DNA of 64,000 nucleotides from an uncultured Planctomycetia bacterium (GTDB lineage: Bacteria > Omnitrophota > Gorgyraeia > 2-02-FULL-51-18), in the NCBI GenBank assembly GCA_964431835.1, contig CAYSKO010000001.1, positions 42,131 through 106,130 on the forward strand, given 5' to 3'. The notes beneath the pieces are model-generated. The model made no database searches. It saw nothing but the letters and a program-made list of their open reading frames with translations, and was not told the DNA's origin. Every line of letters begins with the position of its first letter. The stretch's first letter is position 1. The position numbers were made by a program, and so were the translations under genes. Positions 14,309 through 64,000 of the stretch are shown here, piece after piece.

Positions 14309-14319
14309 CAACCGGCTAA

Positions 14320-14982: not shown

Positions 14983-15352
14983 TTCCAATTAATTTTATAA
15001 TAATTAAAACTTCGATCTTTCCTCGCTCCGAACGTTCAGACCGGTCCGCTTCGAATAAAGCCTCCAGCAGTAAACTTTGAGAAGAAGGGATAAAGCGGGC
15101 AAATTACGCTTGCCGCTTCTCATGGGGGTTTCTTGCTGTCAGTAAAAGAACTCATTGGAGACGGCACATCGAACCTGGTTCGGTAGCTATTCTATAGGCG
15201 GTACGCTAAGAGCATTCTAGGCATCGGGGAAGCCCCCGATGTTCCCCCCGCAGTTCCCCTTAAAGATAATCAGGGCTTCCCCTCATTTTTATGGGCTCCC
15301 GAGCCATCTATACTTATTGCATAACGGATCGATCAAACGAGGAGACCGCCCC

Positions 15353-15763: not shown

Positions 15764-15816
15764 CGACCCATTGGCGACGCCGGAACAATCAGGGGCTTGA
15801 AAAGGAGAAGAGCTTG

Positions 15817-40600: not shown

Positions 40601-43600
40601 GGGGAGCGGAGGCCGTCGTGGGAATAGATGATCCGGCCGGCCAGATCCTGGAAGAGGCGGGTCTCGCCCGGCTCGATCCCCAAGTAATGCTGCTGAATGC
40701 GTGCATGGGTCCACGCGAGAGCGACCGCGCGTTCGAACATGGCCGGATCGTGGTATTTGTCCGCCAGCCCCATGGTTTCCTCGCGCGAAGAAGTGATCAC
40801 GGTCGTGAAGGTCACACGGACGGTTTCGCCAGGCGCGACGCGGACGCGGCAGCGCAGGCTCACGATCGGATCGATGACGGCGCCGGCATTATCGGACAAA
40901 GGTTTGCCGTCGATCACGCACATGGGCGTGTGGATTCGCCGCCCCCGGCCCAGAAAACGGGTGCGGTTGGATTCATACTGAACCGCCCCTACAGAGTCTC
41001 CTTCGACGACTATGACATGGCCGGCCCATGGAGAGGATTCGTGCGGGGAACGCGGCCGCCGCGTGCAGAGCAAGCCGGTTACTTCCGGCACAAATTCGGT
41101 GTGAACGAAAAGGTTGGAAAATGCGGGGTGGGCGAGGTCCGCCATGTGGGGAGCGAGGACGATCTCGGCGTAGGACGTCACGTCGATCAGCCGGGGAGAG
41201 TCGCCGGTATTTTTCAAAGAGACGCGGCGAATCTCGGCGTCGTCTTCGGGAGACACGACCACTTCGAGCGTCGTCTCGATGCTCCCGTCACGGCGGGTGA
41301 TTTCCGCGCGGTCTTCGGAAAAGTTCGCTTTGTATTTTTCCGGCTCGGTGGTCGTGGGTTGATAGCCTGCGGACCAGACTTGGTCGGATTCGACGTCCCG
41401 CAGAAAAATATAGGTGCCGGTAGCGTCGCGCGTGGCGTCCTCTCTCCAGCGCGTGACGGCGATATCCCGCCAGCGGGAATACCCGGAGCCGGCGGCCGTG
41501 ATCATGACGCTGTAGCGACCGTTCGAAAGTAAATGCGTTCTCGGCACCCCTTCGTGGGGAGAATCAAACCGCCGCAGGACCAAAGGAGCCGCATCGCGGC
41601 CCTCGGCGGGGGATTCCTTGGGCCGCACCCGCACGACGGTGGCCGACCGGGGCACGCGTTCTTGAAGGAGGAGATTGCTCGCCTGCACACGGGGCTCGGC
41701 GTTAAAACGGACACGAAAAATACCGTCATACAGCGTGTTGGCCAGGGAGATCAGCGACATTCCTTGGTGGTGAGCCATATACGCCCTCACGACGGCCACG
41801 CTTTGGTTCTCCGGGAGCCGCGCCGCCGTAAAATCCAGTGATTCGTAAAAACCGAACCCTCCCTGACCGCCTATTTTTTCAAGATTCCTGAAATTTTTTG
41901 CGGCTTCCTTTGGCGCGATCATCGCCGCGAGCGCGGTCGCATAAGGCGCGACGACCAGATCTTCGGATAGTCCCTGCTTGAGTCCCAAGCCCGGAACGCC
42001 GAAATTGGAGTACTGATAGGTGTGATGGAGATTTTGGACGTTGTACGCGGATTCAGAAACTCCCCACGGAACGCCGCGCTCCGCGCCGTAGGCGATTTGC
42101 AGACGGACGATGCGGCGGCAGGTCTGGTCCAGAAGACTGTTGGCGGGAGACCGCATGACCAGGAGCGGCATGAGGTACTCAAACATCGATCCGGACCAGG
42201 AGACGAGCATGAGCGAGTGGTTCACCGAAATGATCGAGCGCGCCAGGCGGAACCAGTGCATGGCCGGCACGTCGCCTTTGGCGATTGCGACGAAGCTGGC
42301 GAGCCTCGCCTCGGAAGTCAGGAGATCGTAAAAACTCGCATCCAGCTTACGCTCGGCCACCTGGTAGCCGATCGAAAACATTTTTTTGGAGGGATCGTAC
42401 AAGAATCCGAATTCCATCTCCCGGACCAGCCGGTCACAAGATTTGGCCACGGTCCGGAGGCGGTTTGTGAGGGCCTTGGAATGCAGGTCCTTCTGATGGC
42501 TTCGGACCTGACGGAGCAGGAGTTCCGACCAGCTCAAGAGCTCGTCCTTTAATTTACCACTTTTTCCGCCGGACAGCACTTCGGCGATATCAATGAGCGT
42601 GACGGTGCGCGTCTCGATTTCGGCCAGTCGATCGGGCCACTCGGACGGCGAAGGAAGGGTATCCGTGAGACTGGTTTTCAGGGCGACAAGCGCTTCTTCG
42701 AGTTGAGCGCCCGTCACGGTCTCCGTGCGCCTACCGGCGCCGGCTCGGGAGGCGGCTTCCCGGATCAGGAAGAATGTGTCCTTGAACCCGTCGAAGATAT
42801 TGGTCCTTAGAAGCGGCGGATTCTCCATCTGCCGGCAGGCTTGAGCCAGGGTCCACAAGTGGCCCGCGAGATTTCCGCTGTCCACCGTGGATACGTAACG
42901 GGGTTCCAGCGGCCGCAGATCGTTGGTGCTATACCAGTTGAAGAGATGCCCGTGATGCTTCGCCATTTTTTTGATCGTGGCAAGCGTCGCCTCGAGTTTT
43001 TCGACGGTATCGGAAATCCCGATCCATCCGAAGTCGCGCGCGCTGACGACTGAAAGAAGGTACAGCCCGATGTTGGTGGGCGACGTGCGCTCGGCGACCA
43101 CGGGATCGGGAATTTCCTGAAAGTTGTCGGGCGGAAGGGATTGATGCGACTCGTCGACGAACGTTTCAAAAAACCGCCATGTTTTTCGTGCGATGACGCG
43201 AAGACGCCGGCGGTCTTGGGCGCTCAGCCTCTCGTCCTTGGCTTCGGAGAGGGGCAAGCTGATGGCCCACGCGATACGCGGAGAAAAGGCCCATAACGCC
43301 GCGAAGGGGAGGACCATCCAAAGCCGTTCTCCGGTCGCGCACGCGAACGGGAGCAGCGCTGCCGCTAGGGCAATCAAGGGAGCGCCGATCATCCGTTCAT
43401 AAAAAATAGCCGGCACGTAACCGCAGCGGCTTTTGGATTGGGCCGCAGTGGCCCATTCGAGTTTGTTGCGGCGGCTGATCGTGAGGCGGTAGAGGGTCCT
43501 CAGAATAGCATCCGTCATCATGACCGTCTGATGGGCGAGGAAGATCGCGGTGAAAAGAATGTAAGCGGCGGCCAAACGAAAATCTGTCCATACCGTGCCC

Positions 43601-46314
43601 AGATGGCGACGAAGGGGGATTTGCCTCCGCCGCGGCAGGATACCGCCCAGAAGCGGTTGCATGGGGACGAACGCGACGGCGCTCAGAAGAAAAACCATCC
43701 ATAACCCAGCGGGGGCGGACGGAACGCTCGAGGCCAGAAGCAGCGTCACGAGCAAAGCCGGCGCCGACAGGGAGCGCCGTAAATTGTCGATCATTTTCCA
43801 GCGACCGATCAAAGGAAGCGGGCGTCCTACTATCCAGGGAAGCAATTGCCAGTCCCCGCGCGTCCACCGGTGGGCGCGCGTGACAGCCATGTCGTAATGA
43901 GACGGAAATTCTTCGAAAAACTCGATGTCGGTGACTAGCCCCGCGCGCGCGTGAATGCCTTCTAGAAGGTCGTGGCTGAGCACGCTGTTTTCGGGAAAAC
44001 GTCCCGCGAGCGCGGTCTCGAAAGCGTCGAGATCGTAAATACCCTTGCCGGTGAAGGAGCCTTCGCCGAAAAGATCCTGGTAGACGTCGGAGACGGCGAA
44101 CGCGTAGGGGTCGATGCCGGCGGGCCCCGAGAAAACCCGCTGATAAATGGAACCGTTCCCGGTGACGGGCAGAGTGGGCGTGATCCGGGGTTGCATCACG
44201 CCGTAACCCTCGATGACGCGGCCGTTCTTTTCGTCGAAGCGGGGACGATTGAGCGGGTGGGCCATCGCGCCCACCAGCCGATAGGCGGTGCCATAAGACA
44301 TCCGGGTGTCGGCATCCAGCGTGATGATGTAACGGATTTTCTCCGGAAACGGAACGGGCTTCCCTGCGACGGGCATGAACGTCGTGTTGGCGCTTCCGCG
44401 CAAGAAGCGATTCAATTCGTGGAGTTTTCCGCGTTTGCGTTCCCAGCCCATCCACACGCCCTCTTTTTCATTCCAGACGCGTTGCCGATGAAAAAGATAA
44501 AAACGCGGCTGGTCCCCGGGGCCCGGTCCGTAGAGATTGTTCAGTCGGTCGACCCCTAGCCGCGCCGCGTCGAGAAGGTTTTCGTCGTCGGGGGCGCGTT
44601 CCACGGGGGCGTCGGTCCAGTCCGTCAAGAGGGCGAATTGCAGAAAGCCTTCCGAATGGTTTAGATAGTGAATTTCAAGATGCTCGAGATTTTCCTGGAT
44701 CGTGCGGAAGTCGATCAAGAGGACCGGCATGACGACAAGCGCCCGGCAATCGGCCGGGATTCCTTTGGAAAAATCCAGTTTCGGCAAAAGGCGGGGCCCC
44801 ACCCATTTCATCGCCAGACGGTTGACGACCGCTATCGCCACATCGGAAGCCGGAATAAAGGCGGCGATCGCGAAGAGGGCGACCGCTAGGACGCTCATTC
44901 CTTGTGCGTGGCCCAGGACGAGCGGAACAGCCAAAAGAACGGCCGTGGCGATCAAAATGGAGCTCACATAAGCAAGTGCGGTTCTAGAAGCGTAGGCGCG
45001 GACAAATCGGTTTTTGAATGAGATCCGGCAGCGGAGGCTCTTTTCGAAAAGGGGCCGGCCTCGGGAGATCAGGTAATAACCGATGTCTCCCTTATGCTCC
45101 AAGCTTCCCGGCCGTTTTCGCGCGGCCCGGGCGGTCTCGACCACGCGCTGCGTGACTTCGAGTTCGGAAAGTCCGGACCGTACGGCGAGTTTTTCTATGG
45201 AATGACGGTAAAGATCCCGGGTGGGGAAATCGACGGAGGCGAAACCGCTCTCGTCCCGCAAAGCCTCATCGACGACGGAGACATCTTCAAAGAATTGAGA
45301 CCAGTCCAGCGCGGACACCAAGCGCATGCTCGTGATGATGTTGCGCGCGGTCGTATTGAGAGCGGTCTGCTCCTGATGCTCCAAGCGGATGATGTCGTCG
45401 GCGACCGCGCCTTGGGTTCCCAGTCGCTCGTCCAGCCACTGCAGCACCGGCGCGATGCTCTCGCCCTGGTCTCGGAGGCGCAGCACGAGTTGGACGGCGA
45501 ACGATTTGTCGAGGGCCTCCTTTTCAAAAGGACGGAGAGCCTCCTCGAGGTCTGCGGCCGCGCGTCCCTTCAAGCCGAGCAGGGAATCTGCCAGCGTGTC
45601 CGCCTTGAGGCGCTCGGCTTTGCTATGAAGCACGTGGTCCACCAGGCGGCGCAGATTTTCGACGAGAACGATGCGCAGACTGATCGCCAGCGCCCATACT
45701 TCGCCGATCGTGAGCGGGTCGACGCGTTGATAAGCCAGTACGAAACGCCGCAGCCAATCGGGATCGAAACGGCTGTCCGTATGGGCGACAAAGCCCCACG
45801 CCACCCCGTAAACGCGGGGGGTCCCTTTGAGGAATCCGTCCGTGAGTTTGGGAAGTCCGCGGTAAAACTTGGGAGGAAGGTCGTCGTGGATCTCGAGGAT
45901 CTGCTCCTCGAGGACGTGAAAATTATCCACGAACCATTCGGCGGCGGGCGTGATCGATCGTTCGTCACGGACGTTTTGAGTGATCCGGCGATGGGCCGCG
46001 CTCAGTACGCGGCCGTTTTCTTTGACGCGCCCCAGAATCGCTCGGCCCTTCAAAGGCTTGCGAGTGACGCCCTGCGCCCGGGCGAGGCTGTCGGCGTGCT
46101 GTTCCAGTCTTTCGAGGCTGAAAAGCTCGGCTCGAATGAGTTCCGCGGGTTTATTGAGGGAAGATGGAAATAGAGGTTTCATCGGTGCGTTCGCAACATT
46201 ATAACACCGAAGCGCGGCCCGCACCGCAAGTCCTTTGCCTATAATCATTAAAGATGACATTTTTTTTGTGGAAAATTTGGGGGCTTTATAACAAATGTTA
46301 GCAATATTATACAT
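37690..46314 (-). CDS. ndvB: Cyclic beta-1,2-glucan synthase (NdvB/ChvB/Cgs-type; GT84 glycosyltransferase region + GH94 glycoside phosphorylase-like C-terminal region)
   Basis: It is a single uninterrupted 2874-aa ORF, which is the size of ChvB/NdvB. A TM cluster lies at aa about 430-480 and about 820-1000. The central glycosyltransferase region ('YITLDADTRMSYGTAYRLVGAMAHPLNRP') is DxD-like. The C-terminal GH94-like region is 'DGGWYRRAFFDDGTPLGS ... RYKVEPYVMAGDVYA'. Confidence 0.75.
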   Translation of the reverse strand: MYNIANICYKAPKFSTKKMSSLMIIGKGLAVRAALRCYNVANAPMKPLFPSSLNKPAELIRAELFSLERLEQHADSLARAQGVTRKPLKGRAILGRVKENGRVLSAAHRRITQNVRDERSITPAAEWFVDNFHVLEEQILEIHDDLPPKFYRGLPKLTDGFLKGTPRVYGVAWGFVAHTDSRFDPDWLRRFVLAYQRVDPLTIGEVWALAISLRIVLVENLRRLVDHVLHSKAERLKADTLADSLLGLKGRAAADLEEALRPFEKEALDKSFAVQLVLRLRDQGESIAPVLQWLDERLGTQGAVADDIIRLEHQEQTALNTTARNIITSMRLVSALDWSQFFEDVSVVDEALRDESGFASVDFPTRDLYRHSIEKLAVRSGLSELEVTQRVVETARAARKRPGSLEHKGDIGYYLISRGRPLFEKSLRCRISFKNRFVRAYASRTALAYVSSILIATAVLLAVPLVLGHAQGMSVLAVALFAIAAFIPASDVAIAVVNRLAMKWVGPRLLPKLDFSKGIPADCRALVVMPVLLIDFRTIQENLEHLEIHYLNHSEGFLQFALLTDWTDAPVERAPDDENLLDAARLGVDRLNNLYGPGPGDQPRFYLFHRQRVWNEKEGVWMGWERKRGKLHELNRFLRGSANTTFMPVAGKPVPFPEKIRYIITLDADTRMSYGTAYRLVGAMAHPLNRPRFDEKNGRVIEGYGVMQPRITPTLPVTGNGSIYQRVFSGPAGIDPYAFAVSDVYQDLFGEGSFTGKGIYDLDAFETALAGRFPENSVLSHDLLEGIHARAGLVTDIEFFEEFPSHYDMAVTRAHRWTRGDWQLLPWIVGRPLPLIGRWKMIDNLRRSLSAPALLVTLLLASSVPSAPAGLWMVFLLSAVAFVPMQPLLGGILPRRRQIPLRRHLGTVWTDFRLAAAYILFTAIFLAHQTVMMTDAILRTLYRLTISRRNKLEWATAAQSKSRCGYVPAIFYERMIGAPLIALAAALLPFACATGERLWMVLPFAALWAFSPRIAWAISLPLSEAKDERLSAQDRRRLRVIARKTWRFFETFVDESHQSLPPDNFQEIPDPVVAERTSPTNIGLYLLSVVSARDFGWIGISDTVEKLEATLATIKKMAKHHGHLFNWYSTNDLRPLEPRYVSTVDSGNLAGHLWTLAQACRQMENPPLLRTNIFDGFKDTFFLIREAASRAGAGRRTETVTGAQLEEALVALKTSLTDTLPSPSEWPDRLAEIETRTVTLIDIAEVLSGGKSGKLKDELLSWSELLLRQVRSHQKDLHSKALTNRLRTVAKSCDRLVREMEFGFLYDPSKKMFSIGYQVAERKLDASFYDLLTSEARLASFVAIAKGDVPAMHWFRLARSIISVNHSLMLVSWSGSMFEYLMPLLVMRSPANSLLDQTCRRIVRLQIAYGAERGVPWGVSESAYNVQNLHHTYQYSNFGVPGLGLKQGLSEDLVVAPYATALAAMIAPKEAAKNFRNLEKIGGQGGFGFYESLDFTAARLPENQSVAVVRAYMAHHQGMSLISLANTLYDGIFRVRFNAEPRVQASNLLLQERVPRSATVVRVRPKESPAEGRDAAPLVLRRFDSPHEGVPRTHLLSNGRYSVMITAAGSGYSRWRDIAVTRWREDATRDATGTYIFLRDVESDQVWSAGYQPTTTEPEKYKANFSEDRAEITRRDGSIETTLEVVVSPEDDAEIRRVSLKNTGDSPRLIDVTSYAEIVLAPHMADLAHPAFSNLFVHTEFVPEVTGLLCTRRPRSPHESSPWAGHVIVVEGDSVGAVQYESNRTRFLGRGRRIHTPMCVIDGKPLSDNAGAVIDPIVSLRCRVRVAPGETVRVTFTTVITSSREETMGLADKYHDPAMFERAVALAWTHARIQQHYLGIEPGETRLFQDLAGRIIYSHDGLRSPQDILARNTLGPAGLWPYGISGDLPILLVRINEAEDAGIVRDALRAREYWRMKNLAVDLVILNEKAHSYSQELQASLENLVRSTQAIHKHDAADLQGGIFVLRAEILSAEEQTLLRTAARVILNSRNGSLMQQLARLEEPVDFRPPLRRKAKAAPPLKTPAELSRLQFFNGLGGFSSDGSEYITHLGTGQWTPAPWINVIANPGFGFQVSESGSGYTWAGNSRENQLTPWSNDPASDPSGEIFYVRDEETGEFWTPTVLPIREEAWPYVSRHGQGYSRFEHVSHGIALELLQFVPVADPVKISRLSVTNQSDRRRKLSVTAYVEWVLGSSRASNAPFVITEVDAQTGAILARNPWNTEFAQGVAFADLGGQQTAWTADRSEFLGRNGTYDLPAAIAKGARLSGKSGPGLDPCAAFQKTIDLRPGARIEIVFLLGQGADRAATGELIRRYRTADIDAVLSEVKEQWAGVLEKVQVRTPDRSMDLLLNRWLLYQTLACRVWARCGFYQAGGAYGFRDQLQDVMALLVSRPDIAREHILRAAARQFPEGDVQHWWHPPSGRGVRTRISDDLVWLAYVVMQYIEVTGDRGILKESVAFLEGQTIPEGREDAYFQPLVSAECATLFEHCARALDRSLAVGSHGLPLMGTGDWNDGMNRVGHEGKGESVWLAWFLHATLREFSKVAESTNEHARAEKWRLHAGDLKTAVEHHGWDGGWYRRAFFDDGTPLGSAVNEECRIDSIAQSWGVLSGAADPARAARSMASLREHLVRKKDGLVLLLTPPFDKMKPSPGYIQGYLPGIRENGGQYTHAGVWALLAFAASGDGNSAGELFSLLNPINHASTRIDIERYKVEPYVMAGDVYAGSTHTGRGGWTWYTGSASWMYRAGIESILGFRLRGNTLFFDPCIPASWEGFELSFLHGSTRYQIKTENPDRVSRGVRSMEMDGRPLRRLEGIVLADDQMSHQIRVVLGQVTT

Positions 46315-46421: not shown

Positions 46422-49400
46422 GTGAGTGAGTCAAAAGGTCCTCCAGACCAGATTTCCAACGGAATCCGAAAATCTCCTCTCCCACCGAAAGTTCTTACGC
46501 GTGCGCCCAATACCCCGGTTGTCTCAGACGACGAAACGCTCATCAGGCCTTTTTCGATCGTAGCGATCGGCGCGTCCGCGGGGGGCATTGAAGCCGTTCA
46601 AGGCCTGCTGAAAAAGCTTCCCCCGGACACGGGCATGGCTTACGTTCTGATTCAGCATCTCGATCCCCATTACGAGAGTAAGCTGACGGCCATTCACTCG
46701 AAGATGACCCGCATGCGTGTTTTGGAAGCGGAAGACCGGATGCGCGTGGAGCCCAATCACTTGTACGTCATCCCGCCGAATACGTGCATGTGCATCAAGG
46801 GCGGGATCCTGAATCTTGAGCCGCGCCCCGAAGGCCAGCATCTTAATCTGCCTATCGACCTCTTCTTCACGTCGCTCGCCCACGATTGGGGGAGCCAATC
46901 CATCGCCGTCGTACTCTCGGGCACCGCATCGGACGGCTCGCGAGGAATCATGGCCGTCAAAGATGTGGGCGGCATCACCTTTGCGCAGGACGAATCGGCG
47001 CAATACGACTCGATGCCCAAGAACGCGGTGCTGACGGAGTGCGTGGATTTCGTTCTTTCGTTACCGGCCATCGCCCAAAAATTGAGCGAGATCGCCCCGC
47101 ATCCTTACGTCACCCCTTCGAAAAGCGCCGTGGACAACCTTTTGTTGGAAGAGGAGTCTTTTAAGAAGATCTCGGCGATTCTTTTCAAAACCTCGGGAGT
47201 CAATTTCAGTCTGTATAAACAGGGGACCGTTCAACGTCGGATAATGAGACGCATGGCCTTGAGCAAAGTCCAGACACTCCGCGAGTATCTAGCGATCCTG
47301 GAAAACGACGCCAAAGAGCTCGAGAAACTCCGCCAGGATATTCTGATCCACGTCACCCGTTTTTTCAGGGACGCCGAAATGTTCGAGGCCTTGAAAAAGG
47401 AAATATTTCCCGCCCTCACCAAAAACAAGTTCACTAACGAGCATCCGCTTCGCATGTGGGTGGCCGGATGCTCCACGGGAGAAGAAGTCTACTCCATTGC
47501 GATCAGCCTGCTCGAATTCCTGGGGGGAGAGGCCAATAGCGTTCCCTTTCATATTTTTGGTACGGATCTGAACGAGAGCTGCGTCTATACGGCGCGGAGA
47601 GGTGTTTATTCTCCACTCATCACGGCGGATGTCTCCGAAGAGCGCCTGCGCCGTTTCTTCTTGAAAACGACCGAAGGCAAATATCAGATCATCAAGTCCA
47701 TCCGGGAGCAATGCGTCTTTTCCGTCCACAACGTCGCGGCGGATCCGCCTTTTTCGAGAATGGACCTCATTAGCTGCCGCAATCTCCTGATCTATTTGGG
47801 CCCCGAGCTGCAACAGAAAGTTTTCCCCCTTTTTCATTACGCGTTGAATCCGGGCGGCTTCCTCGTGCTGGGCCAGTCTGAATCCGTCGTCGCCCACGAC
47901 GATCTTTTCGCCGTTATCAATAAATCAGCCAAGCTCTTCACGAAAAAGCCCGCGAATACCCCGCAGGTTTCTTTGGCTCTTCAGAGCTCGCTTTCCGGGA
48001 GAGAGCCTCTCAAGATTCCAACGACGATCTCGAACAGATCCGAGTCGCGCACCAACGCGGAGGTCTTAAAGGAAGCAGATCACCTCATTCTCTCCAAATA
48101 CGATCACGCCGGGGTCGTCGTAAATGCGAACATGGAAATCCTTCAATTTCGAGGGGATACGTCGTCTTACTTACGAAACACGCCCGGAACCCCGAGCTTC
48201 AATCTGTTGAAAATGGTCCGAGAGGGCCTGGCCGCGGAGCTGCGGCTCGCCATCGATAAAGCAAAACAGGATAAACGTCCTTTCAAAAAAACGGGCCTTC
48301 GGATGAAATACAAGACGGAATTCAAATCCGTATTCATCGAAGTGAATCCTCTGAATACTTCACCGACCGATGAGGTGCATTTTTTAATTCTCTTCGGAGA
48401 GGACGAGCCTCTCCAGGCCTCGAAAACCAATCCCGAGGCGGCTCCCCCAAAAAAAGGTGATCGGCCGACCCCTTCCCGGCTCGACGGGCTGGAAGGGGAG
48501 CGCGATTCGATAAAAGAGGAGCTCTCCTCGACGAAAATTTTCATGCAGTCCATCATCGAAGAGCGCGAAGGGGCGAACGAAGAGCTGCAAACCGCCAACG
48601 AAGAGATTCTTTCCTCGAATGAAGAGCTACAGAGCCTGAACGAGGAGCTCTACAGCTCCAACGAGGAGCTTCAGACCGCCAAAGAAGAGCTTCAGGCTTC
48701 GAACGAGGAAACCACCACCATCAATGACGAGCTGCAGCATCGAAACGAACTGCTCGTGCAGCTGAGCGACGACCTGGAAAACGTGCTCACGAGCATTTCG
48801 TTGCCCGTCGTGATCGTCGGGGGGAGACCTACGCGTCCGGCGCTTCACGCCCAAAGCCGAAAAAATATTCCGCCTTCTTCCCGCCGACATCGGCCGGTTG
48901 ATCACGGACATCAAGCTACAGCTACACATTTCCCCTCTCGAAACCCTCGTTCTGGACGTCATCAAAAGCCTCTCGTCCAAAGAAATGGAAGTTCAAGACA
49001 ACGAGGGTTCCTGGCACGTTCTCCAAATACGCCCCTACCGCACGAGCGATAATAAGATCGACGGGGCGGTCATCACGCTGACCGACATCAACGCCTTGAA
49101 AAAGAACGAAAAAGTACTCAAAGCCTTCGCCGATTTCAAAGGCGCCATCATCGAGACGATGCGGGAGCCGCTTCTGATCCTGGACCGCGAGTTCCGCGTC
49201 ATAATCGCCAATAAAAGCTTTTACGAGACGTTTCGGGTTTCCCGGGAAAAGACCGAGGGCCAATCGCTCTTCAGCCTCGGAGACGGGCAGTGGGACATTC
49301 CGACCATCCGGAAGCTCCTTGAGACGGTCCTTCCGATGAAAACGGCATTCGACGATTACGAGGTCACCAAGGATTTCCCGGGCATCGGGCGCAAGGTCAT

Positions 49401-55063: not shown

Positions 55064-56179
55064 ATGCAGGCATCCGGGAACGGCACGAATCTTCTTTCCT
55101 CCTTCTCGCTAGGCCCCCTATTACTTAAAAACCGCATGGTCATGGCGCCGCTCACGCGCTGCCGCGCCGATGCCGTGACGCGCGTTCCCACGCCGATGAT
55201 GGCCACTTACTACGAACAGCGCGCCTCCGCCGGGCTCATCATTTCCGAAGCGACGGTCGTGACGGGAAAGGGCGTCGGGTATCCCGCGACGCCGGGCATT
55301 TACAGCCCCGAGCAGATTGCCGCGTGGAAAACGATCACGGACGCCGTGCACGCCCAAGGCGGCCGGATGTTCCTCCAGCTCTGGCACTGCGGCCGCGCCT
55401 CGCATTCGTCTTTCCTCGGCGGTGAGCTTCCGGTTTCCTCATCCGCCGTCCCGATTCCCGGCGAGCTCTACACCCCGACCGGTATGCAGCCCTACGAAAC
55501 CCCGCGCCCGCTCGAGGCGAACGAGATCCCTGGAATCGTCGCTCTTTACGCTGAAGGCGCGAAGAACGCAAAAGCCGCCGGCTTCGACGGCGTGGAAATT
55601 CACGGAGCCAACGGCTATTTAATCGACCAATTCCTGCGGGACGGAGTCAATAAGCGCACCGACGCCTACGGCGGCTCGATCGAAAACCGCGCCCGCTTCC
55701 TCTTCGAGGTCGTCGAGGCCGTGATCAAGGTATGGGGCAAAGACCGCGTCGGCCTGCGCCTCTCGCCCAGCACGTCGTTCAACGCCATGAGCGACTCCGA
55801 CCCCGCCAAGCTCTTCGCCTGGGTCGCCGAAAAACTGAGCACCTCCGGCCTCGCCTACCTCCACTGCACCGAAGGCGACGAAAGCGACCTCCGCCACGGC
55901 GGCCAGATCGTCGACCTCCTCCCGATCCGCAAAGCCTTCATAGGCACGCTCCTCGTCTGTGGCGGCTACGACCAGGCCAAAGGGGAAGCGGCCTTGAAGA
56001 ATGGCAGGGCCGATCTCGTGGTATTCGGAAAGCTCTTCATCGCGAACCCCGACTTGCCGGAGAGATTTAAGGACGGGAAGGCATTGAATGCTTGGGATGA
56101 GACCACCTTCTACTCCCCGGGGGAGAAGGGGTATGTTGACTATCCGACGCTCGGTCAGGCGCAAAACGTTCGGATTTAA
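55064..56179 (+). CDS. Old Yellow Enzyme-family NADH:flavin oxidoreductase (NemA-like)
   Basis: The motifs are 'LLKNRMVMAPLTRCRA', 'HAQGGRMFLQLWHCGR' and 'GFDGVEIHGANGYLIDQFL'. Confidence 0.8.
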   Translation: MQASGNGTNLLSSFSLGPLLLKNRMVMAPLTRCRADAVTRVPTPMMATYYEQRASAGLIISEATVVTGKGVGYPATPGIYSPEQIAAWKTITDAVHAQGGRMFLQLWHCGRASHSSFLGGELPVSSSAVPIPGELYTPTGMQPYETPRPLEANEIPGIVALYAEGAKNAKAAGFDGVEIHGANGYLIDQFLRDGVNKRTDAYGGSIENRARFLFEVVEAVIKVWGKDRVGLRLSPSTSFNAMSDSDPAKLFAWVAEKLSTSGLAYLHCTEGDESDLRHGGQIVDLLPIRKAFIGTLLVCGGYDQAKGEAALKNGRADLVVFGKLFIANPDLPERFKDGKALNAWDETTFYSPGEKGYVDYPTLGQAQNVRI

Positions 56180-56258
56180 CGTGTCCCCTTGGGACCTCGT
56201 CCGGGATGTGTCTTTTTATGGTCCGGTTCGGCAAATAATCTAAGAGGGAGAATATTGA

Positions 56259-57890
56259 ATGCAGTGGATCGCCCCATCAAAAAAAGATGAAGGCCAGGCA
56301 ACGCTTGAGAAGAAGTTGTGGGATGCGGCGGATCAGCTGAGGGCTAATTCAGGACTGACGGCGGCGCAGTATTCCCAGCCGGTGCTGGGGCTTATTTTTT
56401 TAAGATTCGCGGATAATCGGTTTCAAGCGTTAAAGAGTAAACTTGAAAAGTCATCTGCATCCTCTCGGCGCGGGTCTCTGGTCAATGATGCAGCGTCCTA
56501 TCATGCCGAAGGTATTCTTTTTCTTGCTCCCGAAGCCCGCTTTGAAGAGCTTCTCAATTGGCCAGAGGGCGGGAAGAAAGGCAAGACCATCGGCCAAGGC
56601 GTCAATGATGCCATGCGCGCAATCGAGCGCGATAATCCCCAGCTGGCGGGTGTGCTCCCCAAGACTTATCAAATATTTGACGCCCGTACGCTCAAAGAGC
56701 TGATCAAGCACATCTCCATTATTCCCACCAATCTCGAAGGCGATGCCTTCGGTAAAATCTACGAATACTTCCTTGCCGAATTTGCCATGACCGAAGGGCA
56801 GGGTGGCGGAGAGTTTTACACGCCCACTTCTATTGTTCGTCTGATGGTAGAAATCCTCGAGCCATTCCACGGCCTTGTGCTCGACCCGGCTTGCGGGTCG
56901 GGCGGTATGTTCGTGCAGAGCGCTCGTTTTGTGCAAGAGCACAATAAAAAGGCCGCGGATGAGCTGCGTATCCATGGCGTCGAAAAGACCGACGATACCG
57001 GCCGCCTCTGCCGTATGAACCTTGCCGTTCACGGCCTTGAGGGAAATATTGCGCACGGCGGACAGGTCAATAGTTACTACGACGATCCGCATGAGGCCAC
57101 CGGGAAGTTTGATTTTGTGCTCGCCAATCCGCCGTTTAATGTAAACGCCGTGGATAAAGACCGGTTGAAAGATTCTGTAGGCCCGGGCCGCCGCTATCCG
57201 TTTGGCCTACCCAATACCGATAACGGCAACTATCTTTGGATACAACTTTTTTACTCATCGCTCAATAAAAAAGGACGCGCGGCATTTGTCATGGCCAATT
57301 CGGCCGCGGACGCCCGCTCTTCCGAGCTCGAGCTTCGTAAAAAGCTTATTCAAGATCACTCGGCGGATGCCATCGTGGCTGTAGGGCCGAATATGTTTTA
57401 TACCGTGACGCTCCCCTGCACGCTCTGGTTTTTGGATCGAGGCAAGAGCAAAACGGATCGCTCGGATAAAGTCCTTTTTTTGGACGCAAGACATGTCTAT
57501 CGGCAGATCGACCGCGCGCATCGGGACTGGGCAGAGGAGCAGATCGGTTTTCTTGCGAATGTCGTGCGGCTTTATCGCGGTGAAGAGGTGGATGTCACCT
57601 TGGGTGGGGAAGAAGCCCGGAAGAAGCTCATCGAGGTCTTCGGCAAAAAATCAAAGTACAAAGATGTGCTGGGTTTATGCAAAGCCGCCACACTTAAAGA
57701 AATCGAAGCGCAGGGTTGGAGCTTGAATCCCGGGCGTTACGTCGGCGTTGCTCCCGGCGAAGAAACGAGCGATGAAGATTTTAAAGAAAAGCTGACGACG
57801 CTAAATAAAGAGCTAGAAACTCTCAACGCGCAAGCGCGCACCCTCGAAAAAACCATCGCTCGCAACGTGACGGAGATCCTGGAAGTATGA
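56259..57890 (+). CDS. hsdM: Type I restriction-modification DNA methyltransferase subunit M
   Basis: The HsdM N-terminal region is '[36 protein letters not shown]'. The AdoMet motif I is '[12 protein letters not shown]'. The catalytic motif IV is 'VLANPPFN'. Confidence 0.9.
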
Positions 57891-58933
57891 GTACTCCCGA
57901 CGACATCAACCCACCCGGTAAGGGGCAGTTTCTCGTCTATCCCACCGAAGACGGGCAGACGAAGATTGAAGTCCGGTTGGAAAACGAAACCGTTTGGCTG
58001 ACACAGCAACACATGTCCGAGCTTTTTCAGGTGGGCGTTTCGACTATTAACTACCATCTCAAAGAGATCTTCGATAGCGGCGAATTGACACCGGAGGCAA
58101 CTATTCGAAATTATCGAATAGTTCGCAAGGAAGGGACCCGCGAAGTAGCTCGCTCACTCGATTTCTACAACCTTGACGCCATTATCTCCGTCGGCTACCG
58201 CGTCAAAAGCACCGTCGCCACGCGCTTTCGCATCTGGGCCACGCAAAAACTCCGTGAGTTTATCGTCAAAGGCTTTGTCCTCGATGACGAACGCTTGAAA
58301 AACCCCGATCAACCTTTCGATTACTTTGATGAGCTGCTCCGGCGGATTCAGGACATCCGCACGTCCGAGCGGCGCTTTTACCAAAAGATCACCGATATCT
58401 ATGCCACCAGCATCGATTATGACCCTACTCAGCCGGTTAGCATCGAGTTTTTCCAGACCGTGCAAAATAAAATGCACTGGGCCATTACCGGACAAACGGC
58501 CGCGGAAATCATTCACTCCCGCGCCAATAGCGCCAAGTCCAACATGGGCCTGACCAACTGGCGCGGCGCGAAGGTGCGCAAAGAGGACGTCTCCATCGCC
58601 AAAAACTATCTCAATGAGGCTGAATTGGCCGCCCTCAATAACCTCGCCGAGCAATACCTCCTCTTTGCCGAAGGCCAGGCCCTGCGCCGCGTGCCGATGC
58701 ACATGCGCGACTGGATCACGAAGCTCAACGCCTTTCTGACGGTCAACGACCGCAATATCCTGACCCATGCGGGGAAGATTTCCCATCAACTCGCCAAGGA
58801 GCTGTCCGAGACGGAATATAAAAAATTCAATCTCAAGCGCATCCAGCAGAGCGACCGATCCGGTGGAGATTTTGAGAAGGCGATTAAACAATTGCCAAGT
58901 CCGCCCAAGCGGAAGAAAAACAAGAAGAAGTGA
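57887..58933 (+). CDS. RhuM-family protein (virulence protein RhuM / DUF-type). This is a common insert between hsdM and hsdS.
   Basis: Its ATG overlaps the hsdM stop (ATGA). Homologs of this roughly 350-aa family are found embedded in type I R-M loci. Confidence 0.55.
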
Positions 58934-60177
58934 ATCGCCGTGGAAATCCTCCAAGCATGATAAATCAAACCCAAAGCCATCGTCCGCAATGTGGTCAAGA
59001 TTCTAAAGGCATGACGATGTTAGAGAAATCCCCAGTCTCAGATGTTTGCACAATCATTACTCGCGGCATTTCACCTGCTTACGATGATACAGGGATTCCA
59101 GTGTTGAGCCAGAAATGTGTGCGTGAGAACCAAGTAATTTTAGAGGCAGCGAGATTCACTAACCCAGAGATGAAAAAAATTCCAGCAGATAAATTGCTCC
59201 GATTGCACGATGTTTTAGTTAATTCAACCGGTGTTGGTACATTGGGACGTGTTGCTCAGGTCAACCGTCTTGATGGCGATACAACGGTGGATTCACACGT
59301 CACCATTGTTCGTCCTGATCCCAAAAAAATTGACCCTCGGTTCTTCGGCTATTCGATGGTTCTTAATCAACCTAAAATTGAGTCTATGGGTGAAGGCGCG
59401 ACGGGGCAAACCGAGTTGTCTCGTGCGCGATTGGGGCAGGAAATTCTTATCCCACGTCCTCCACTGCTGATACAACGGCAGATTGCGGACATCCTATCAG
59501 CCTACGACGATCTGATCGAAAATAATTTGAAGTGTATCAAAATTCTCGAAGAAATGGCCCGCTCGCTTTATCGGGAATGGTTTGTCTATTTTCGTTTTCC
59601 TGGTTATGAAAAAGTAAAATTTGTTGATTCTCCCCTTGGAAGAATTCCTCAGGGGTGGGAGGTGAAGAAGCTCGGAGATATTGCTGATATAAGTTGGGGC
59701 GACACATCAACGACGAAGGCTTCATATATGGAGGAGGGATACCCCGCTTATAGCGCATCCGGCTTGGACGGGAAACTGGATCATTATGATTTTGACCGCA
59801 TAGGAATCGTACTGAGTGCGATTGGTGCACAATGCGGCAGAACGTGGCTCGCTCGGGATAAGTGGTCCTGCATCAAGAACACGATTAAATTTTGGTCAAA
59901 GGACGACTGCGCCAGCACCGAGTTCTTGTTTATCGCAACGGAAGGTCAAGATTTCTGGCCGCGCCGAGGGGCTGCTCAGCCGTTTATTTCTCAGGGCGAT
60001 GCGGAGAGAAAAGATATTTTGATTCCCGATCTTTTCACAATGAACAGGTTTACTAAATTTGTAGAGAATGTTTCGGTGCAGAACGCAATCATGGAGACCC
60101 AAGTTCAAAACCTTCGCCGGACGCGCGATCTGCTTTTGCCCCGGCTATTGTCGGGCAGCCTTGAGCTGAATACATGA
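58930..60177 (+). CDS. hsdS: Type I restriction-modification specificity subunit S
   Basis: There are two target-recognition halves. The central conserved region is 'LIQRQIADILSAYDDLIENNLKCIKILEEMARSLYREWF'. The distal conserved region is 'NLRRTRDLLLPRLLSGSLEL'. The start is either the GTG at 58930 (GTGA overlap) or the ATG at 59011. Confidence 0.85.
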   Translation: MNRRGNPPSMINQTQSHRPQCGQDSKGMTMLEKSPVSDVCTIITRGISPAYDDTGIPVLSQKCVRENQVILEAARFTNPEMKKIPADKLLRLHDVLVNSTGVGTLGRVAQVNRLDGDTTVDSHVTIVRPDPKKIDPRFFGYSMVLNQPKIESMGEGATGQTELSRARLGQEILIPRPPLLIQRQIADILSAYDDLIENNLKCIKILEEMARSLYREWFVYFRFPGYEKVKFVDSPLGRIPQGWEVKKLGDIADISWGDTSTTKASYMEEGYPAYSASGLDGKLDHYDFDRIGIVLSAIGAQCGRTWLARDKWSCIKNTIKFWSKDDCASTEFLFIATEGQDFWPRRGAAQPFISQGDAERKDILIPDLFTMNRFTKFVENVSVQNAIMETQVQNLRRTRDLLLPRLLSGSLELNT

Positions 60178-61208
60178 GTCTCGATCTTGCTACAATTTTG
60201 CCGAACGTTAGTCATTCGCTTGAAAGTACCGGGTTTCTTTTTGGGTCAGGTACTTCTGTGGAGGCTGGCTATCCAGTAATGTCTGGCTTGACTCGAAAAG
60301 TTGTTGGGGCGCTAATTCTTGACGAGAGGAAAGTGTTGGATGAAGTGCTTTCCGTTGCTGGTGTCGCCTACAGTGACACTGATGCCAAACCAAACATCGA
60401 GGAATTGTCCGACTTTGTCATTGCCCACGCAATTAATTCGCACGACGCAAGATGCACCACTCTTGAAAGCAAGTTTAGAGAGTTGATTGTAAAGGAAATT
60501 CTTTCGGTTGAAAATCCAAATATTGAAAACCACGTTCAATTTTTCTGTGCTCTAAAAAAACGGACCTTCGGACGTCCATGCACCGTATGGATTTTTACAA
60601 CTAACTACGACCTGCTTTTTGAGATGGGAGCGGCGAAAGCTGGTGTGTTAATTGAAAATGGATTCTCGGGAAGCACGGAGCGTTTTTTCAATCCCGGGCA
60701 ATTCAGAGCGACGTCTGGTGAGGTTCTGGGGAGCCGTTTTACTCCAAACAATCAACTCACGGTGAAGCTGGTTAAGCTCCACGGATCTATTTCGTGGACG
60801 AATGAAGCGGGGCATCTCTTCGAGCGACATCCCGATGCGCTTACCGGAGCGGCAAGTCGCATCATGGTTCTGCCTCGCCGAGGAAAGGTCATGGACACAC
60901 TTGTTCCTCCTTACGAGACGTTATTTGGCTACACGAGTCGAGTGCTTGGCGTAGCATGTAAATATCTTCTTTCTTGTGGATTCAGTTTTGGAGATGAGCA
61001 CATAAACCAACATCTCATTTTACCCGCTTTGCAGTCTGGGCGAGCTCGTCTTTTTACGTTGAACGAGTTCGAGCCATCAGGAATGGAAGATTTTAAAAAA
61101 CTACCGACGTTTGAGGGCGGTTATTCAAATGAGCTTTACTTGGGCGGGAAGGTGGTGACACCCGGGACAGACTTTTGGAAATTCAGCCAGTTCGTGAAAC
61201 TTTTTTAA
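60174..61208 (+). CDS. SIR2-like (SIR2_2 / DHS-like NAD-binding fold) protein; the putative NADase component of a SIR2-HerA defense pair
   Basis: The N-terminal 'FLFGSGTS' is a Rossmann-like loop. 'TTNYDLLFE' is the signature of prokaryotic SIR2-like defense domains. 'KLHGS' is also present. Its ATG overlaps the hsdS stop. Confidence 0.7.
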   Translation: MSLDLATILPNVSHSLESTGFLFGSGTSVEAGYPVMSGLTRKVVGALILDERKVLDEVLSVAGVAYSDTDAKPNIEELSDFVIAHAINSHDARCTTLESKFRELIVKEILSVENPNIENHVQFFCALKKRTFGRPCTVWIFTTNYDLLFEMGAAKAGVLIENGFSGSTERFFNPGQFRATSGEVLGSRFTPNNQLTVKLVKLHGSISWTNEAGHLFERHPDALTGAASRIMVLPRRGKVMDTLVPPYETLFGYTSRVLGVACKYLLSCGFSFGDEHINQHLILPALQSGRARLFTLNEFEPSGMEDFKKLPTFEGGYSNELYLGGKVVTPGTDFWKFSQFVKLF

Positions 61209-61220
61209 CTGGGAGAATTT

Positions 61221-62930
61221 ATGAGTGACTATCAAATTGGAAGAGTTATAGCGGTAACGGGCGACGAGATCTTTGTATCGTTGCTTGATCATGAGCAGTC
61301 AAGTGGTTTGGAGTTTGGTGTACCCGATTCAATGACTGTCCATCTTCCGAGCGCAACAGGGCCCATGCCCGTACTGATTGGCCAGCCAGGAACATTTGTG
61401 AGCATTGCATTGCCCGCGGGAAAGCTTCTGTGTATGGTGACAGGTGTTGAATTGCGTGAGGCGAAGATTTTGGGGTCGGAACTTCGCGAAGCAGAGTCTG
61501 AAGGTTCGTTGATACTTGATCGTGCTACTCGAGGTTTGACGACGATACCAGTTGGAACAACCGATGCGGCAGGTAAGTTTGAGCGTGGTACGGACGTGCT
61601 TCCGACGGTCAATGCGCCCGTTTTTGCCGTAACGGCCGAACTAATTGACAAAGTATATTCAAGTTATGCAGAGGGAGACTTTACGATTGGGATGCTGTCG
61701 CTGCTCCCCACCCAGCAAGCTAAAATAAATCTTGATGCTTTCCTGACACGTCATGCCGCTATTCTTGGTCAGACTGGGGGCGGCAAGTCTTGGACTGTCG
61801 CATCACTGATTCAGAAAATGTGTAGATTTCAGCAGGCCACTATTGTCTTGTTTGACTTGCATGGAGAATACGCCACTACCTTTGGAGCTTCTGCCGATGT
61901 AATTTCGGCGACGGATTTGGAATTACCATATTGGCTGATGAATTCTGAAGAACTACTTGGCCTTATGGTTGATAGAAGCGAGTCAGCGGCACCGAACCAA
62001 ATCGCGAAGTTCAAGGAAATTCTGCAGGCCGCGAAGGAATCTCACCCAGAAAATGCGGCACTCGGAATTAAGAAAATTACGATTGATACACCAGTATTTT
62101 TTGACTTCGACGCTATATTGAGCGAGTTTCAGCGTCTTGACACAGAAATGGTTTCTGGTCAGCAGAAACCGAAGCTGGGACCGCTCTTCGGTGATTTTAC
62201 GCGCTTGCTAATGAGGATTAATTCCCGCCTAAATGATAGACGCTACGATCTTATTTTTCACCCAAAAACGTATAATACCAGCGCTTCGATGGAGGATTTA
62301 TTTCGCCGGTTGCTTAGCGAAAAGAAAGGTGACCGAAAAAAAGTTGTGGTTGTCGATTTGAGTCCAGTACCTTTCGATGTTCGTGGTTCAGTTATTTCGC
62401 TCATCTTACGCTGCCTGTTTGACTTCGCCTATTGGCATAGGCGTGTCAATTCAACACGATTTCCAATAGCTGTATTTGCTGACGAGGCGCACATTTATCT
62501 TCGTGATGGTGATACGGCTTCGGATGCTGCGAAACAATCCGCTGAACGCATTGCGAAAGAAGGTCGAAAATACGGCATTAGTTTAACGGTTATTAGTCAG
62601 CGGCCGAGAGAAGTTTCAGCTACTATTTTGTCGCAGTGTAATAGTTTCCTTTGCTTGAGGATTTCCAATCCCGACGATCAATCTTATGTCAGAAATTTAT
62701 TGCCTGATTCGGTTCGAGGTATCGTTAGCATGTTCTCGACCCTCCGCCGTGGTGAAGGCATCTTATTGGGAGATTCAGTGATGATGCCAACTCGTATCAG
62801 AATTGATGCTCCGAGTCCTGCCCCGGTGAGTGATGATGCATCATTTTACAAGGCGTGGAACGAAGCGCCCAAAGATATTGATTTTGCTAAGGTGCTAAAG
62901 GCGTGGAGAGACCAAGAGGTCACTCCTTAA
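61221..62930 (+). CDS. HerA/FtsK-like ATPase (DUF87-type); the partner of SIR2 in the SIR2-HerA antiphage system
   Basis: It has an N-terminal beta-barrel-like region. Walker A is 'ILGQTGGGKSWT'. Walker B is 'KKVVVVDLS' and 'AVFADEAHIY'. The HerA signature is 'LTVISQRPREVSATILSQCNSFLCLRISNPDD'. Confidence 0.75.
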   Translation: MSDYQIGRVIAVTGDEIFVSLLDHEQSSGLEFGVPDSMTVHLPSATGPMPVLIGQPGTFVSIALPAGKLLCMVTGVELREAKILGSELREAESEGSLILDRATRGLTTIPVGTTDAAGKFERGTDVLPTVNAPVFAVTAELIDKVYSSYAEGDFTIGMLSLLPTQQAKINLDAFLTRHAAILGQTGGGKSWTVASLIQKMCRFQQATIVLFDLHGEYATTFGASADVISATDLELPYWLMNSEELLGLMVDRSESAAPNQIAKFKEILQAAKESHPENAALGIKKITIDTPVFFDFDAILSEFQRLDTEMVSGQQKPKLGPLFGDFTRLLMRINSRLNDRRYDLIFHPKTYNTSASMEDLFRRLLSEKKGDRKKVVVVDLSPVPFDVRGSVISLILRCLFDFAYWHRRVNSTRFPIAVFADEAHIYLRDGDTASDAAKQSAERIAKEGRKYGISLTVISQRPREVSATILSQCNSFLCLRISNPDDQSYVRNLLPDSVRGIVSMFSTLRRGEGILLGDSVMMPTRIRIDAPSPAPVSDDASFYKAWNEAPKDIDFAKVLKAWRDQEVTP

Positions 62931-62933
62931 TTT

Positions 62934-64000
62934 ATGCCCCACCCTTATACGGAAGATCAGCTCGTTGAACAACCCGCCATAGAGCTTTTCTCAAACCTGG
63001 GTTGGAAAACTATTTCAGCGATGGAAGAAGTTTTTGGTGCAGAAGGAACTTTGGGCCGCGAAACTCCCGGCGAAGCAGTCCTGCTCTCCCATTTGCGGCC
63101 CGTTCTTGAAAAGTTAAATCGCTCTATTTCCCCTCAAGCCCTCGAAATCGCTATCGACCTATTGATACGAGATCGCTCTGCAATGGACATCACCTCCGCT
63201 AATCGCGAGGTCTACGAGCTTATCAAGGGCGGAGTATCCGTCTCTGTCCCAGACCATGAGCGTGGTGGCCAGAAAGAGGAGCGTGTTCGTGTCGTGGATT
63301 GGGAGAATCCAACCGCAAACGACTTCCTCGCAGTGCGACAAATCACTTTTACCGGGGTCCTTTACACTTGCCGTCCGGATATCGTGGGATACGTAAACGG
63401 GCTCCCGTGGGTAGTGATAGAGCTTAAGAAGCCAGGTGTTCCCGCCAGACAAGCCTTTGACGACAACCTTACAAGTTACAAACACATTCAAAACGGGATC
63501 CCTCAGCTTTTTTGGTACAACGCGCTTCTGGTTGCTTCCAACGGCACAGAGAGTCGGGTAGGGTCCATCACGGCAGACTGGGATCGATTCTTTGAGTGGA
63601 AGCGTATCGAGCGGGAGGATGAGCCGCGCACCATTTCTCTTGAAACCGTTCTTCGAGGCACCTGCGACAAATCCCGACTTCTGGATCTCGCCGAAAACTT
63701 TACACTTTTCTCTGAGCACAGGGCCGGATTGGTCAAGATACTTGGCCAGAACCATCAGTATTTGGGCGTCAATAACACTATCCAAGCGACGCTTAAGGCT
63801 CGCCAGGGCGGTCATGGGCGCGGTGGTGTGTTCTGGCAGACTCAAGGGAGCGGGAAGAGCTTCTCGATGGTTTTTTATGCCCAGAAGATCTTGCGACGGA
63901 TTCCTGGTAACTGGACTTTTGTCGTCGTCACGGATCGGGTGGAGTTGGATGACCAGATTGCCAAGACGTTTGCCGCCTGCGGCGCGGTATCCGATGCCAA
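62934..64000 (+). CDS. hsdR: Type I restriction enzyme R subunit, N-terminal part (runs off the window end); it is not in the supplied ORF track
   Basis: Translation from ATG 62934 gives 'MPHPYTEDQLVEQPAIELFSNLGWKT...'. The PD-(D/E)xK nuclease core is 'GYVNGLPWVVIELKKPG'. The helicase motif I is 'VFWQTQGSGKSFSM'. The frame is open to nt 64000. Confidence 0.85.
   Translation, partial: MPHPYTEDQLVEQPAIELFSNLGWKTISAMEEVFGAEGTLGRETPGEAVLLSHLRPVLEKLNRSISPQALEIAIDLLIRDRSAMDITSANREVYELIKGGVSVSVPDHERGGQKEERVRVVDWENPTANDFLAVRQITFTGVLYTCRPDIVGYVNGLPWVVIELKKPGVPARQAFDDNLTSYKHIQNGIPQLFWYNALLVASNGTESRVGSITADWDRFFEWKRIEREDEPRTISLETVLRGTCDKSRLLDLAENFTLFSEHRAGLVKILGQNHQYLGVNNTIQATLKARQGGHGRGGVFWQTQGSGKSFSMVFYAQKILRRIPGNWTFVVVTDRVELDDQIAKTFAACGAVSDA

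Follow-up and report, generated by a model that had tools for sequence, protein, structure and literature searches.

A SIR2-HerA gene pair nested between hsdS and hsdR of a type I restriction-modification operon from an uncultured Planctomycetia bacterium

Background

Type I restriction-modification (R-M) enzymes work in two forms, M2S1, which methylates the host DNA, and R2M2S1, which translocates and cuts unmodified DNA. The present study concerns a type I R-M operon in which two further modules, a rhuM gene and a SIR2-HerA pair, are situated between the core genes. The operon lies in a 64,000-nt stretch of contig CAYSKO010000001.1 from an uncultured Planctomycetia bacterium (hereafter the window, with positions counted from its first nucleotide).

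In SIR2-HerA complexes, a SIR2 dodecamer is joined to a HerA hexamer; assembly stimulates the NADase, ATPase, helicase and nuclease activities, and ATP gates them (PMC11472057). For one subtype from E. coli, phage SSB and T7 Gp5.9 are the triggers, and DNA ends drive the consumption of ATP, thereby releasing the NADase (PMC13434337). Under the heading 'guilt by embedding', defense genes nested in loci for type I R-M, BREX, DISARM and Hma have been described, with RhuM as candidate PDC-S05 (Payne et al. 2024), and an enrichment of rhuM beside type I R-M genes has been reported (PMC9881135). TgvAB is nested in a type I operon of V. cholerae (VPI-2), nesting is likewise seen in Pseudomonas genomic islands, and in Streptococcus thermophilus SIR2/HerA pairs have been noted between, or downstream of, R/M systems.

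Organization of the six-gene locus

The locus is best read as an intact type I R-M operon that frames two nested defense modules, in which SIR2-HerA forms an independent abortive-infection layer co-expressed with restriction; we give this reading a probability of about 0.75. Six consecutive genes occupy nt 56259–64000 on the forward (+) strand in the order hsdM-rhuM-hsdS-SIR2-HerA-hsdR, as seen from the open reading frame (orf) calls and, for hsdR, from translation. A ribosome-binding site, AAGAGGGAG (read as AGAGGGAG), was read from the sequence at nt 56242–56250, 5' of hsdM. Gene hsdM (nt 56259–57890) encodes a methyltransferase subunit of 543 amino acids (aa), and its end forms a 4-nt ATGA overlap with rhuM (nt 57887–58933, 348 aa), the RhuM-family gene between hsdM and hsdS. 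The specificity gene hsdS (nt 59017–60177, 386 aa from ATG 59017) encodes two target-recognition domains; its 3' end (nt 60106–60177) encodes QNLRRTRDLLLPRLLSG before the stop codon, which lies in a 4-nt ATGA overlap with the start of SIR2. The SIR2 gene (nt 60174–61208, 344 aa) encodes a predicted SIR2-like NADase effector of the Gao_Her_SIR / GAO_19 / Nezha type and is followed, after a 12-nt spacer containing GGGAGA, by the gene for its partner, a predicted hexameric ATPase/translocase of the HerA family (nt 61221–62930, 569 aa). After a spacer of 3 nt comes hsdR for the restriction/translocase subunit (nt 62934–64000 in the window), with the first 355 of its 1085 aa inside the window.

The original prediction, made from the sequence of the window, had six same-strand genes that overlap or lie 3–12 nt apart, and the reading of orfs and junctions bore this out apart from the start of hsdS. 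It had named overlaps at nt 57887, 58930 and 60174, of which the first and the last stood, while that at 58930 would require an improbable GTG start. Gene hsdS could formally open at GTG 58930 (GTGA overlap, 415 aa). Alignments of the HsdS family begin about 32–37 residues inside that orf, the gene was called from ATG 59017 on an identical contig (L001), and an AAGG lies 9–10 nt upstream of that ATG, which is judged the likelier start. Since the start of hsdS is doubtful, the rhuM/hsdS junction is either -4 nt or +83 nt.

Contig L001 was assembled independently from another data set and carries an identical copy of the locus, with 0 mismatches to the window over 5653 nt and a complete hsdR (1085 aa). 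In the window, hsdR was absent from the orf lists because the gene runs off the end; it had been predicted all the same to start at nt 62934, where HSDR_N and SWI2/SNF2 domains were indeed found. All six reading frames were full length and possessed intact catalytic motifs, hsdR being judged on L001.

Identity of the SIR2-HerA pair

The SIR2 protein matched Pfam SIR2_2 (PF13289) at 3e-08, with 34.5 bits against a cut-off of 24.5, and the PADLOC model SIR2 PDLC04081 at 1e-148 over positions 1–344 of 345. It possessed the motifs TTNYDLLFE (with N144 and D146) and KLHGS (with H203). Sequence comparison with the SIR2 chains of SIR2-HerA complexes in the PDB gave matches to 8yhx (1e-13), 8w9l (1e-11) and 8j4u (3e-10), in which TTNYD and HGS were aligned. 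N144, D146 and H203 correspond in alignment to N163, D165 and H212 of the Paenibacillus enzyme, which are its catalytic residues (PMC11472057), and these residues were invariant among 32 homologues.

The HerA protein matched Pfam DUF87 (PF01935) at 2e-35 and, over its full length, PADLOC HerA PDLC04105 at 2e-168. It possessed Walker A GQTGGGKS (K188), Walker B FADEAH (at 421) and ISQRP (at 459), so that all three motifs reported originally for the pair (TTNYDLLFE, GQTGGGKS and ISQRP) were present. HerA chains in the PDB were matched at 2e-90 (8ziq), 3e-88 (9c1m), 3e-74 (8xau), 4e-68 (8wiv) and 7e-35 (8j4u). The HerA of the window (nt 61221–62930) is thus closer to the HerA of DUF4297-HerA systems (8ziq, 9c1m, 8xau; NCBIfam HerA_antiphage_2) than to that of the solved SIR2-HerA complexes, which suggests a swapping of effectors on one HerA lineage.

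The matches to SIR2_2, to DUF87/HerA and to the PADLOC models over their full length agree with the earlier assignment of the pair to the SIR2-HerA defense system, here as a divergent subfamily (see below). Failure of profile models to assign SIR2_2 or HerA had been named beforehand as the outcome that would speak against it; both families were assigned, and PADLOC models were strong for all six genes.

The type I R-M genes and rhuM

HsdM matched Pfam N6_Mtase (5e-78) and HsdM_N (2e-20) and PADLOC MTase_I (1e-223), and possessed the AdoMet motif DPACGSGG (at 209) and the catalytic NPPF (at 290). HsdS matched PADLOC Specificity_I (4e-54) and, in two stretches, Pfam Methylase_S, as is expected of a two-domain specificity subunit. 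HsdR matched Pfam HSDR_N (8e-44) and SWI2_SNF2 as well as PADLOC REase_I (7e-69); the full protein on L001 additionally had T1R_D3-like and T1RH-like_C domains and matched TIGR00348 hsdR at 2e-147 (493 bits against a cut-off of 285). A nuclease motif of the PD-(D/E)xK type (D149…E163-L-K165), Walker A GSGKS (at 305) and the DEAH (at 401, past the window end) of an SF2 ATPase were observed in HsdR, and its closest solved relative was the HsdR of EcoR124, a type IC enzyme (2e-38). The sequence features by which type I R-M is recognized, in all three subunits, are therefore present.

RhuM matched Pfam Virulence_RhuM (PF13310) at 2e-112 (375 bits against a cut-off of 33.7) and the PADLOC phage-defense candidate PDC-S05 at 3e-146. 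Its assignment to the family is based on the full-length domain match and on the position inside a type I R-M locus; a structure-sequence search found no solved structure with detectable sequence similarity to it.

Recurrence of the nested layout in other genomes

The scan with an alignment of SIR2 covered one genome for each species as well as a collection of metagenomes, and the loci fetched (numbered with L here) were searched with the proteins of the window and with Hsd proteins of a second family. The order hsdS-SIR2-HerA-hsdR recurred in about 25 genomic and metagenomic loci from unrelated bacteria, and nearly all of these had a 4-nt overlap of the hsdS stop with the SIR2 start and an hsdR start 2–8 nt past HerA. 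The placement of the pair between hsdS and hsdR, as predicted for the window, is thus real, and the survey of other hsd operons that had been proposed with it found the same insertion in two distant families of type I R-M.

The first group comprises L011/L079, L014, L015/L082 and L096, with Hsd proteins 65–73% identical to those of the window. Among these, L014, a metagenome-assembled genome (MAG) of Formivibrio, had all six genes including rhuM; L011/L079, a Limisphaerales MAG, had rhuM as well, and L015/L082, a Treponemataceae MAG, had an extra 3.9-kb insert before hsdR. In the second group (L034, L044, L045, L046, L123, L130/131, L134, L144, L145 and L147), the Hsd proteins belonged to another type I family (about 27–30% identical), while SIR2 and HerA shared 43–46% and 70–73% identity, respectively, with those of the window. 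Gene rhuM was co-embedded in both groups (L011 and L014; rhuM-like genes between hsdM and hsdS in L144, L145 and L147), and the six-gene layout was kept across the Formivibrio MAG, the Limisphaerales MAG and the window at 67–85% protein identity. Across L014, L015, L034, L044, L045 and L130, HerA (70–86% identity) was far better conserved than SIR2 (43–81%). In neighbor-joining trees of SIR2, of HerA and of both together, the nested loci formed two separate clades with stand-alone clades between them.

The subfamily was not plasmid-borne in PLSDB, where the records gave one distant SIR2 match, and viral contigs gave only SIR2 proteins of ≤39% identity and no sign of carriage by phages.

Some of the nested loci held additional genes. 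The gap between HerA and hsdR of L015 (nt 12986–16442; same in L082) contained genes for DUF6932 and a 311-aa protein and, on the opposite strand, an RloB + AAA_21 pair; the hsdM-hsdS gap of L034 (nt 6892–8665) contained AAA_21 + DUF4276; and HipA + Fic/DOC were encoded in L144 (nt 11487–14288) between a 5' fragment of hsdR and a full hsdR.

Remnants of R-M genes around stand-alone pairs

The closest relatives that appear to stand alone (SIR2 59–81% identical) mostly bore leftovers of hsd genes. In L012 and L013, residues 2–70 or 2–46 of HsdM, the 3' end of hsdS and fragments of HsdR were retained; in L064 and L135, the N-terminus of HsdM and the C-terminus of HsdS formed an in-frame fusion. 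L081 retained HsdM 1–160, HsdS 336–384 and HsdR 1–45, L091 retained HsdM 1–84 and HsdR 1–45, and L002-5/L010 retained HsdR 1–26 and the HsdS tail, the tail being all that was left in L050, L077, L078, L080, L137 and L149. Leader orfs ending in QNLRRTRDLLLPRLLSG and overlapping the SIR2 ATG by 4 nt were observed in L002, L012, L050, L064, L077, L078, L080, L091, L135, L137 and L149. Short leader orfs in which an HsdM N-terminus is joined in frame to the C-terminal ~20 residues of HsdS (with RRTRDLLLPRLLSG) are located at nt 3257–3553 in L064, 317–757 in L135, 9684–10004 in L012 and ~9930–10004 in L002.

The end-points of the deletions differed among the loci, indicating that the R-M losses were independent. 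Nesting is probably ancestral in the clade of the window, and SIR2-HerA appears to have been kept by selection after the decay of R-M and hence not to be R-M-dependent. The segment from the hsdS 3' end through SIR2-HerA to the hsdR 5' end would then be the unit that persists and probably also the unit that moves. This fits the base composition: GC at third codon positions (GC3) of SIR2 and HerA was nearly constant at 0.44–0.54 in every host, whereas that of the surrounding hsdM/hsdR was 0.61–0.81 (window compared with L014, L015, L034, L044, L045 and L130).

Other SIR2-HerA clades were fully stand-alone, and no hsd remnants of the second family were detected at E<1e-3 around the stand-alone relatives of clade B. 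In L006 and L009, two stand-alone relatives that had no hsd remnants, a short orf about 150 nt upstream of SIR2 ended in NQL(K/Q)SLLYAA*; the motif was repeated in L009 and may be a small repeated element.

Proposed mode of action and alternative explanations

In the reading favored here, the type I genes hsdM, hsdS and hsdR, in the order of EcoR124/EcoprrI, would serve as the frame, with rhuM in the hsdM-hsdS gap and SIR2-HerA in the hsdS-hsdR gap. It is from gene spacing that we infer a single transcript for the six genes. Tight spacing and the retained leader orfs make co-expression from the front of hsdM likely, and the common promoter would lie there. Translation of SIR2 would probably be coupled to the end of hsdS and that of hsdR to the end of HerA. 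As the first layer, the R-M enzyme would methylate the host DNA and cut unmodified invading DNA. By analogy with the studied complexes, a SIR2 dodecamer on a HerA hexamer may stay latent until cues of infection appear (phage proteins and/or DNA ends), upon which NAD+ would be hydrolyzed and DNA damaged; infected cells that escaped restriction would thereby be arrested or killed, an abortive-infection second layer. SIR2-HerA would be autonomous, the R-M proteins not being needed, and nesting would bring co-regulation and co-transfer, the conserved ends of hsdS (3') and hsdR (5') probably serving as homology arms by which the cassette moves between type I operons. RhuM is a candidate for a possible third independent layer. 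Autonomy is argued for by the intact SIR2-HerA found beside hsd remnants, with no working R-M, in L012, L013, L064, L081, L091, L135 and L002-5/L010.

Several observations weigh against this reading. A scan of nt 55900–64000 for consensus sigma-70 promoters and terminators was uninformative, its counts being equal to those in shuffled sequence, and the consensus may not suit the host. An alignment of the 130 nt that precede hsdM in 10 loci, embedded or remnant, showed homology only from about the start codon onwards and no shared motif. If hsdS starts at ATG 59017, the 83-nt gap after rhuM could hold an internal promoter. The proteins also fell short of the NCBIfam equivalog cut-offs, with 96 against 500 bits for SIR2_antiphage and 190–365 against 800–850 bits for the HerA_antiphage models; these cut-offs define narrow equivalogs and not the system as DefenseFinder and PADLOC define it, and because it falls below them the SIR2-HerA of the window is, by its sequence, a divergent subfamily. 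Finally, SIR2 is only remotely similar to the studied partners (E 1e-10 to 1e-13), and owing to this distance from the SIR2 proteins studied biochemically, the transfer of their mechanism is an extrapolation.

The reading just given takes SIR2-HerA to be autonomous. In the EcoprrI locus, however, prrC takes up this very position between hsdS and hsdR. Nesting in type I R-M has been noted for nearly every PrrC (Payne et al. 2024). SIR2-HerA might be a functional accessory of the type I enzyme, held latent by it or sensing its state, and might fire when a phage anti-restriction protein blocks R-M; alternatively, it might be activated by DNA ends made by HsdR. Conservation of the position and of the 4-nt hsdS overlap across two distant hsd families is in keeping with such coupling, as are the turning on of the E. 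coli SIR2-HerA ATPase by linear DNA ends, with release of the NADase and with Gp5.9/SSB as further triggers (PMC13434337), and the 10–100 fold better protection given by nested TgvAB of V. cholerae in the full cluster than alone. We nevertheless regard coupling as unlikely. At least six independent lineages have kept an intact SIR2-HerA next to decayed hsd genes, and in most other clades the pair stands alone, both of which speak against obligate coupling; the systems studied, too, protect when cloned alone (PMC11472057; PMC11514479). The ATGA overlap, moreover, is partly a product of SIR2 starting with ATG-A, since whatever frame ends at this point from upstream will overlap in the same way, and convergence is easy. 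The near-obligate co-occurrence with a host type I R-M that marks PrrC was not seen here, as most relatives were stand-alone or beside decayed hsd genes. If coupling were true, NADase effectors would join the paradigm set by PrrC.

It is rather improbable that one lineage of SIR2-HerA evolved as a dedicated type I accessory, a two-protein analogue of PrrC that could be set free afterwards, once R-M decays, to stand by itself. In that case, the hsdS 3' codons and the abutment on the hsdR 5' end would couple translation, and hence stoichiometry, to the R-M subunits, and the complex would sense DNA ends made by HsdR or an anti-restriction blockade, turning failed restriction into depletion of NAD+.

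Quite improbable, in our judgment, is passive hitch-hiking, in which the hsdS-hsdR gap is a permissive hotspot of recombination and no benefit of the combination has been selected; hsd flanks would promote the exchange of cassettes, R-M addiction would stabilize their contents, and SIR2-HerA may have a promoter inside hsdS. The operon is a compositional mosaic, many kinds of defense genes are nested in type I R-M (Payne et al. 2024), and unrelated modules occur at the same places in L015 (RloB + AAA_21, DUF6932), L034 (AAA_21 + DUF4276) and L144 (HipA + Fic). Likewise, the specificity domains of hsdS were 33–38% identical as against 68–86% for SIR2 + HerA. On the other hand, the full six-gene layout including rhuM is conserved across phyla, pointing to its transfer and upkeep as one unit; genes that overlap so tightly have no room between them for a promoter; and the remnant leader orfs keep the SIR2 overlap.

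A relic, decaying or silent, with at least one non-functional module is hardly credible as a reading of the locus: relatives often show hsd decay and occasional frameshifts in SIR2 or HerA (L010, L020, L046 and L096), but the six frames of the window are full length with intact catalytic motifs, and the independent assembly of another data set yielded an identical copy.

Base composition and genomic surroundings

Neighboring genes had a G+C content (GC) of 0.62–0.63 and a GC3 of 0.80–0.85. Within the block, GC and GC3 were 0.53 and 0.58 for hsdM, 0.53 and 0.68 for rhuM, 0.47 and 0.44–0.47 for hsdS, SIR2 and HerA, and 0.50–0.53 and 0.53–0.57 for hsdR. These values per gene confirm the earlier remark that the block is richer in AT than its flanks, with the caveat that GC is patchy across the whole window. 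The six-gene block is compositionally foreign to its neighbors and is itself a mosaic. Genes upstream of it were ordinary transport and redox genes. Given the patchy window and these ordinary upstream genes, the locus is a self-contained insert, small at about 10 kb, and no part of a large defense island. As to markers of an island, the sole tRNA was about 50 kb off, and neither repeats nor an integrase adjoined the block.

On L001, a small high-GC orf for a membrane protein (MTPELGKVLMIVAG…GDISVRKGNFSFYFP; nt 7841–8050, ~window position 66188 onwards) has its ATGA start on the hsdR stop codon. The low-GC block therefore stops right at hsdR, and its border has neither a spacer nor a repeat or an integrase.

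Elsewhere in the window, nt 5652–10764 comprised tRNA-Met (nt 5652–5728), a gene for a 683-aa HATPase_c_3 protein (nt 5941–7992) and one for a KaiC-like double-ATPase (nt 9250–10764); GC falls there from 0.62 to ~0.50, and the segment may be another acquired one. A giant orf of 2874 aa was located at nt 37690–46314 on the reverse (-) strand, adjoined by a gene for a CheB-CheR fusion protein of 876 aa (nt 46422–49052, +) and then one for a PAS histidine kinase.

Significance and comparison with known systems

The locus shows layered immunity in clean natural form within one probable transcription unit, comprising restriction, a NAD-depleting back-up (predicted) and a RhuM candidate. Two testable points come out of the comparison. 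The hsdS-hsdR gap would be a docking site that can be used again and again, the cassette being bordered by the hsdS 3' end and the hsdR 5' end. Some stand-alone SIR2-HerA genes appear to be survivors of dead R-M operons, which affects how the origins of defense systems and the statistics of 'defense islands' are read. The value of the locus lies mainly in this pattern of evolution and in its use as a tidy model for experiments on layered defense. A search of a literature library that does not cover every paper or supplementary table found no description of an hsdS-SIR2-HerA-hsdR operon, of its recurrence in two hsd families or of the hsd remnants around free SIR2-HerA genes; the tables of Payne et al. 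probably include such cases.

Compared with SIR2-HerA as known from Paenibacillus sp. 453MF and E. coli (Gao_Her_SIR / GAO_19 / Nezha), the window has the same same-strand pair of SIR2_2 and HerA genes, the N/D/H triad and Walker A/B; it differs in that the pair lies inside another operon, where no intergenic space belongs to it alone. The HerA is closest in sequence to that of HerA-DUF4297 (E 1e-74 to 1e-90), but the effector is a predicted SIR2 NADase and not a Cap4-like DUF4297 nuclease. With the PrrC/EcoprrI type IC locus (hsdM-hsdS-prrC-hsdR), it shares the operon order and the placing of an abortive-infection effector, here a predicted one, between hsdS and hsdR. PrrC, however, is a single anticodon nuclease that is held latent by the R-M enzyme and almost never occurs alone, whereas the SIR2-HerA of the window is a predicted two-protein NADase/ATPase of a kind that usually stands alone and survives the loss of R-M. 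As with defense genes that lie within loci for type I R-M, BREX, DISARM or Hma, with TgvAB in VPI-2 of V. cholerae and with Rlo in Campylobacter hsd loci, the modules are unrelated same-strand genes between core hsd genes. Both the components and the habit of nesting are thus already known, and the locus is a further example of a described phenomenon.

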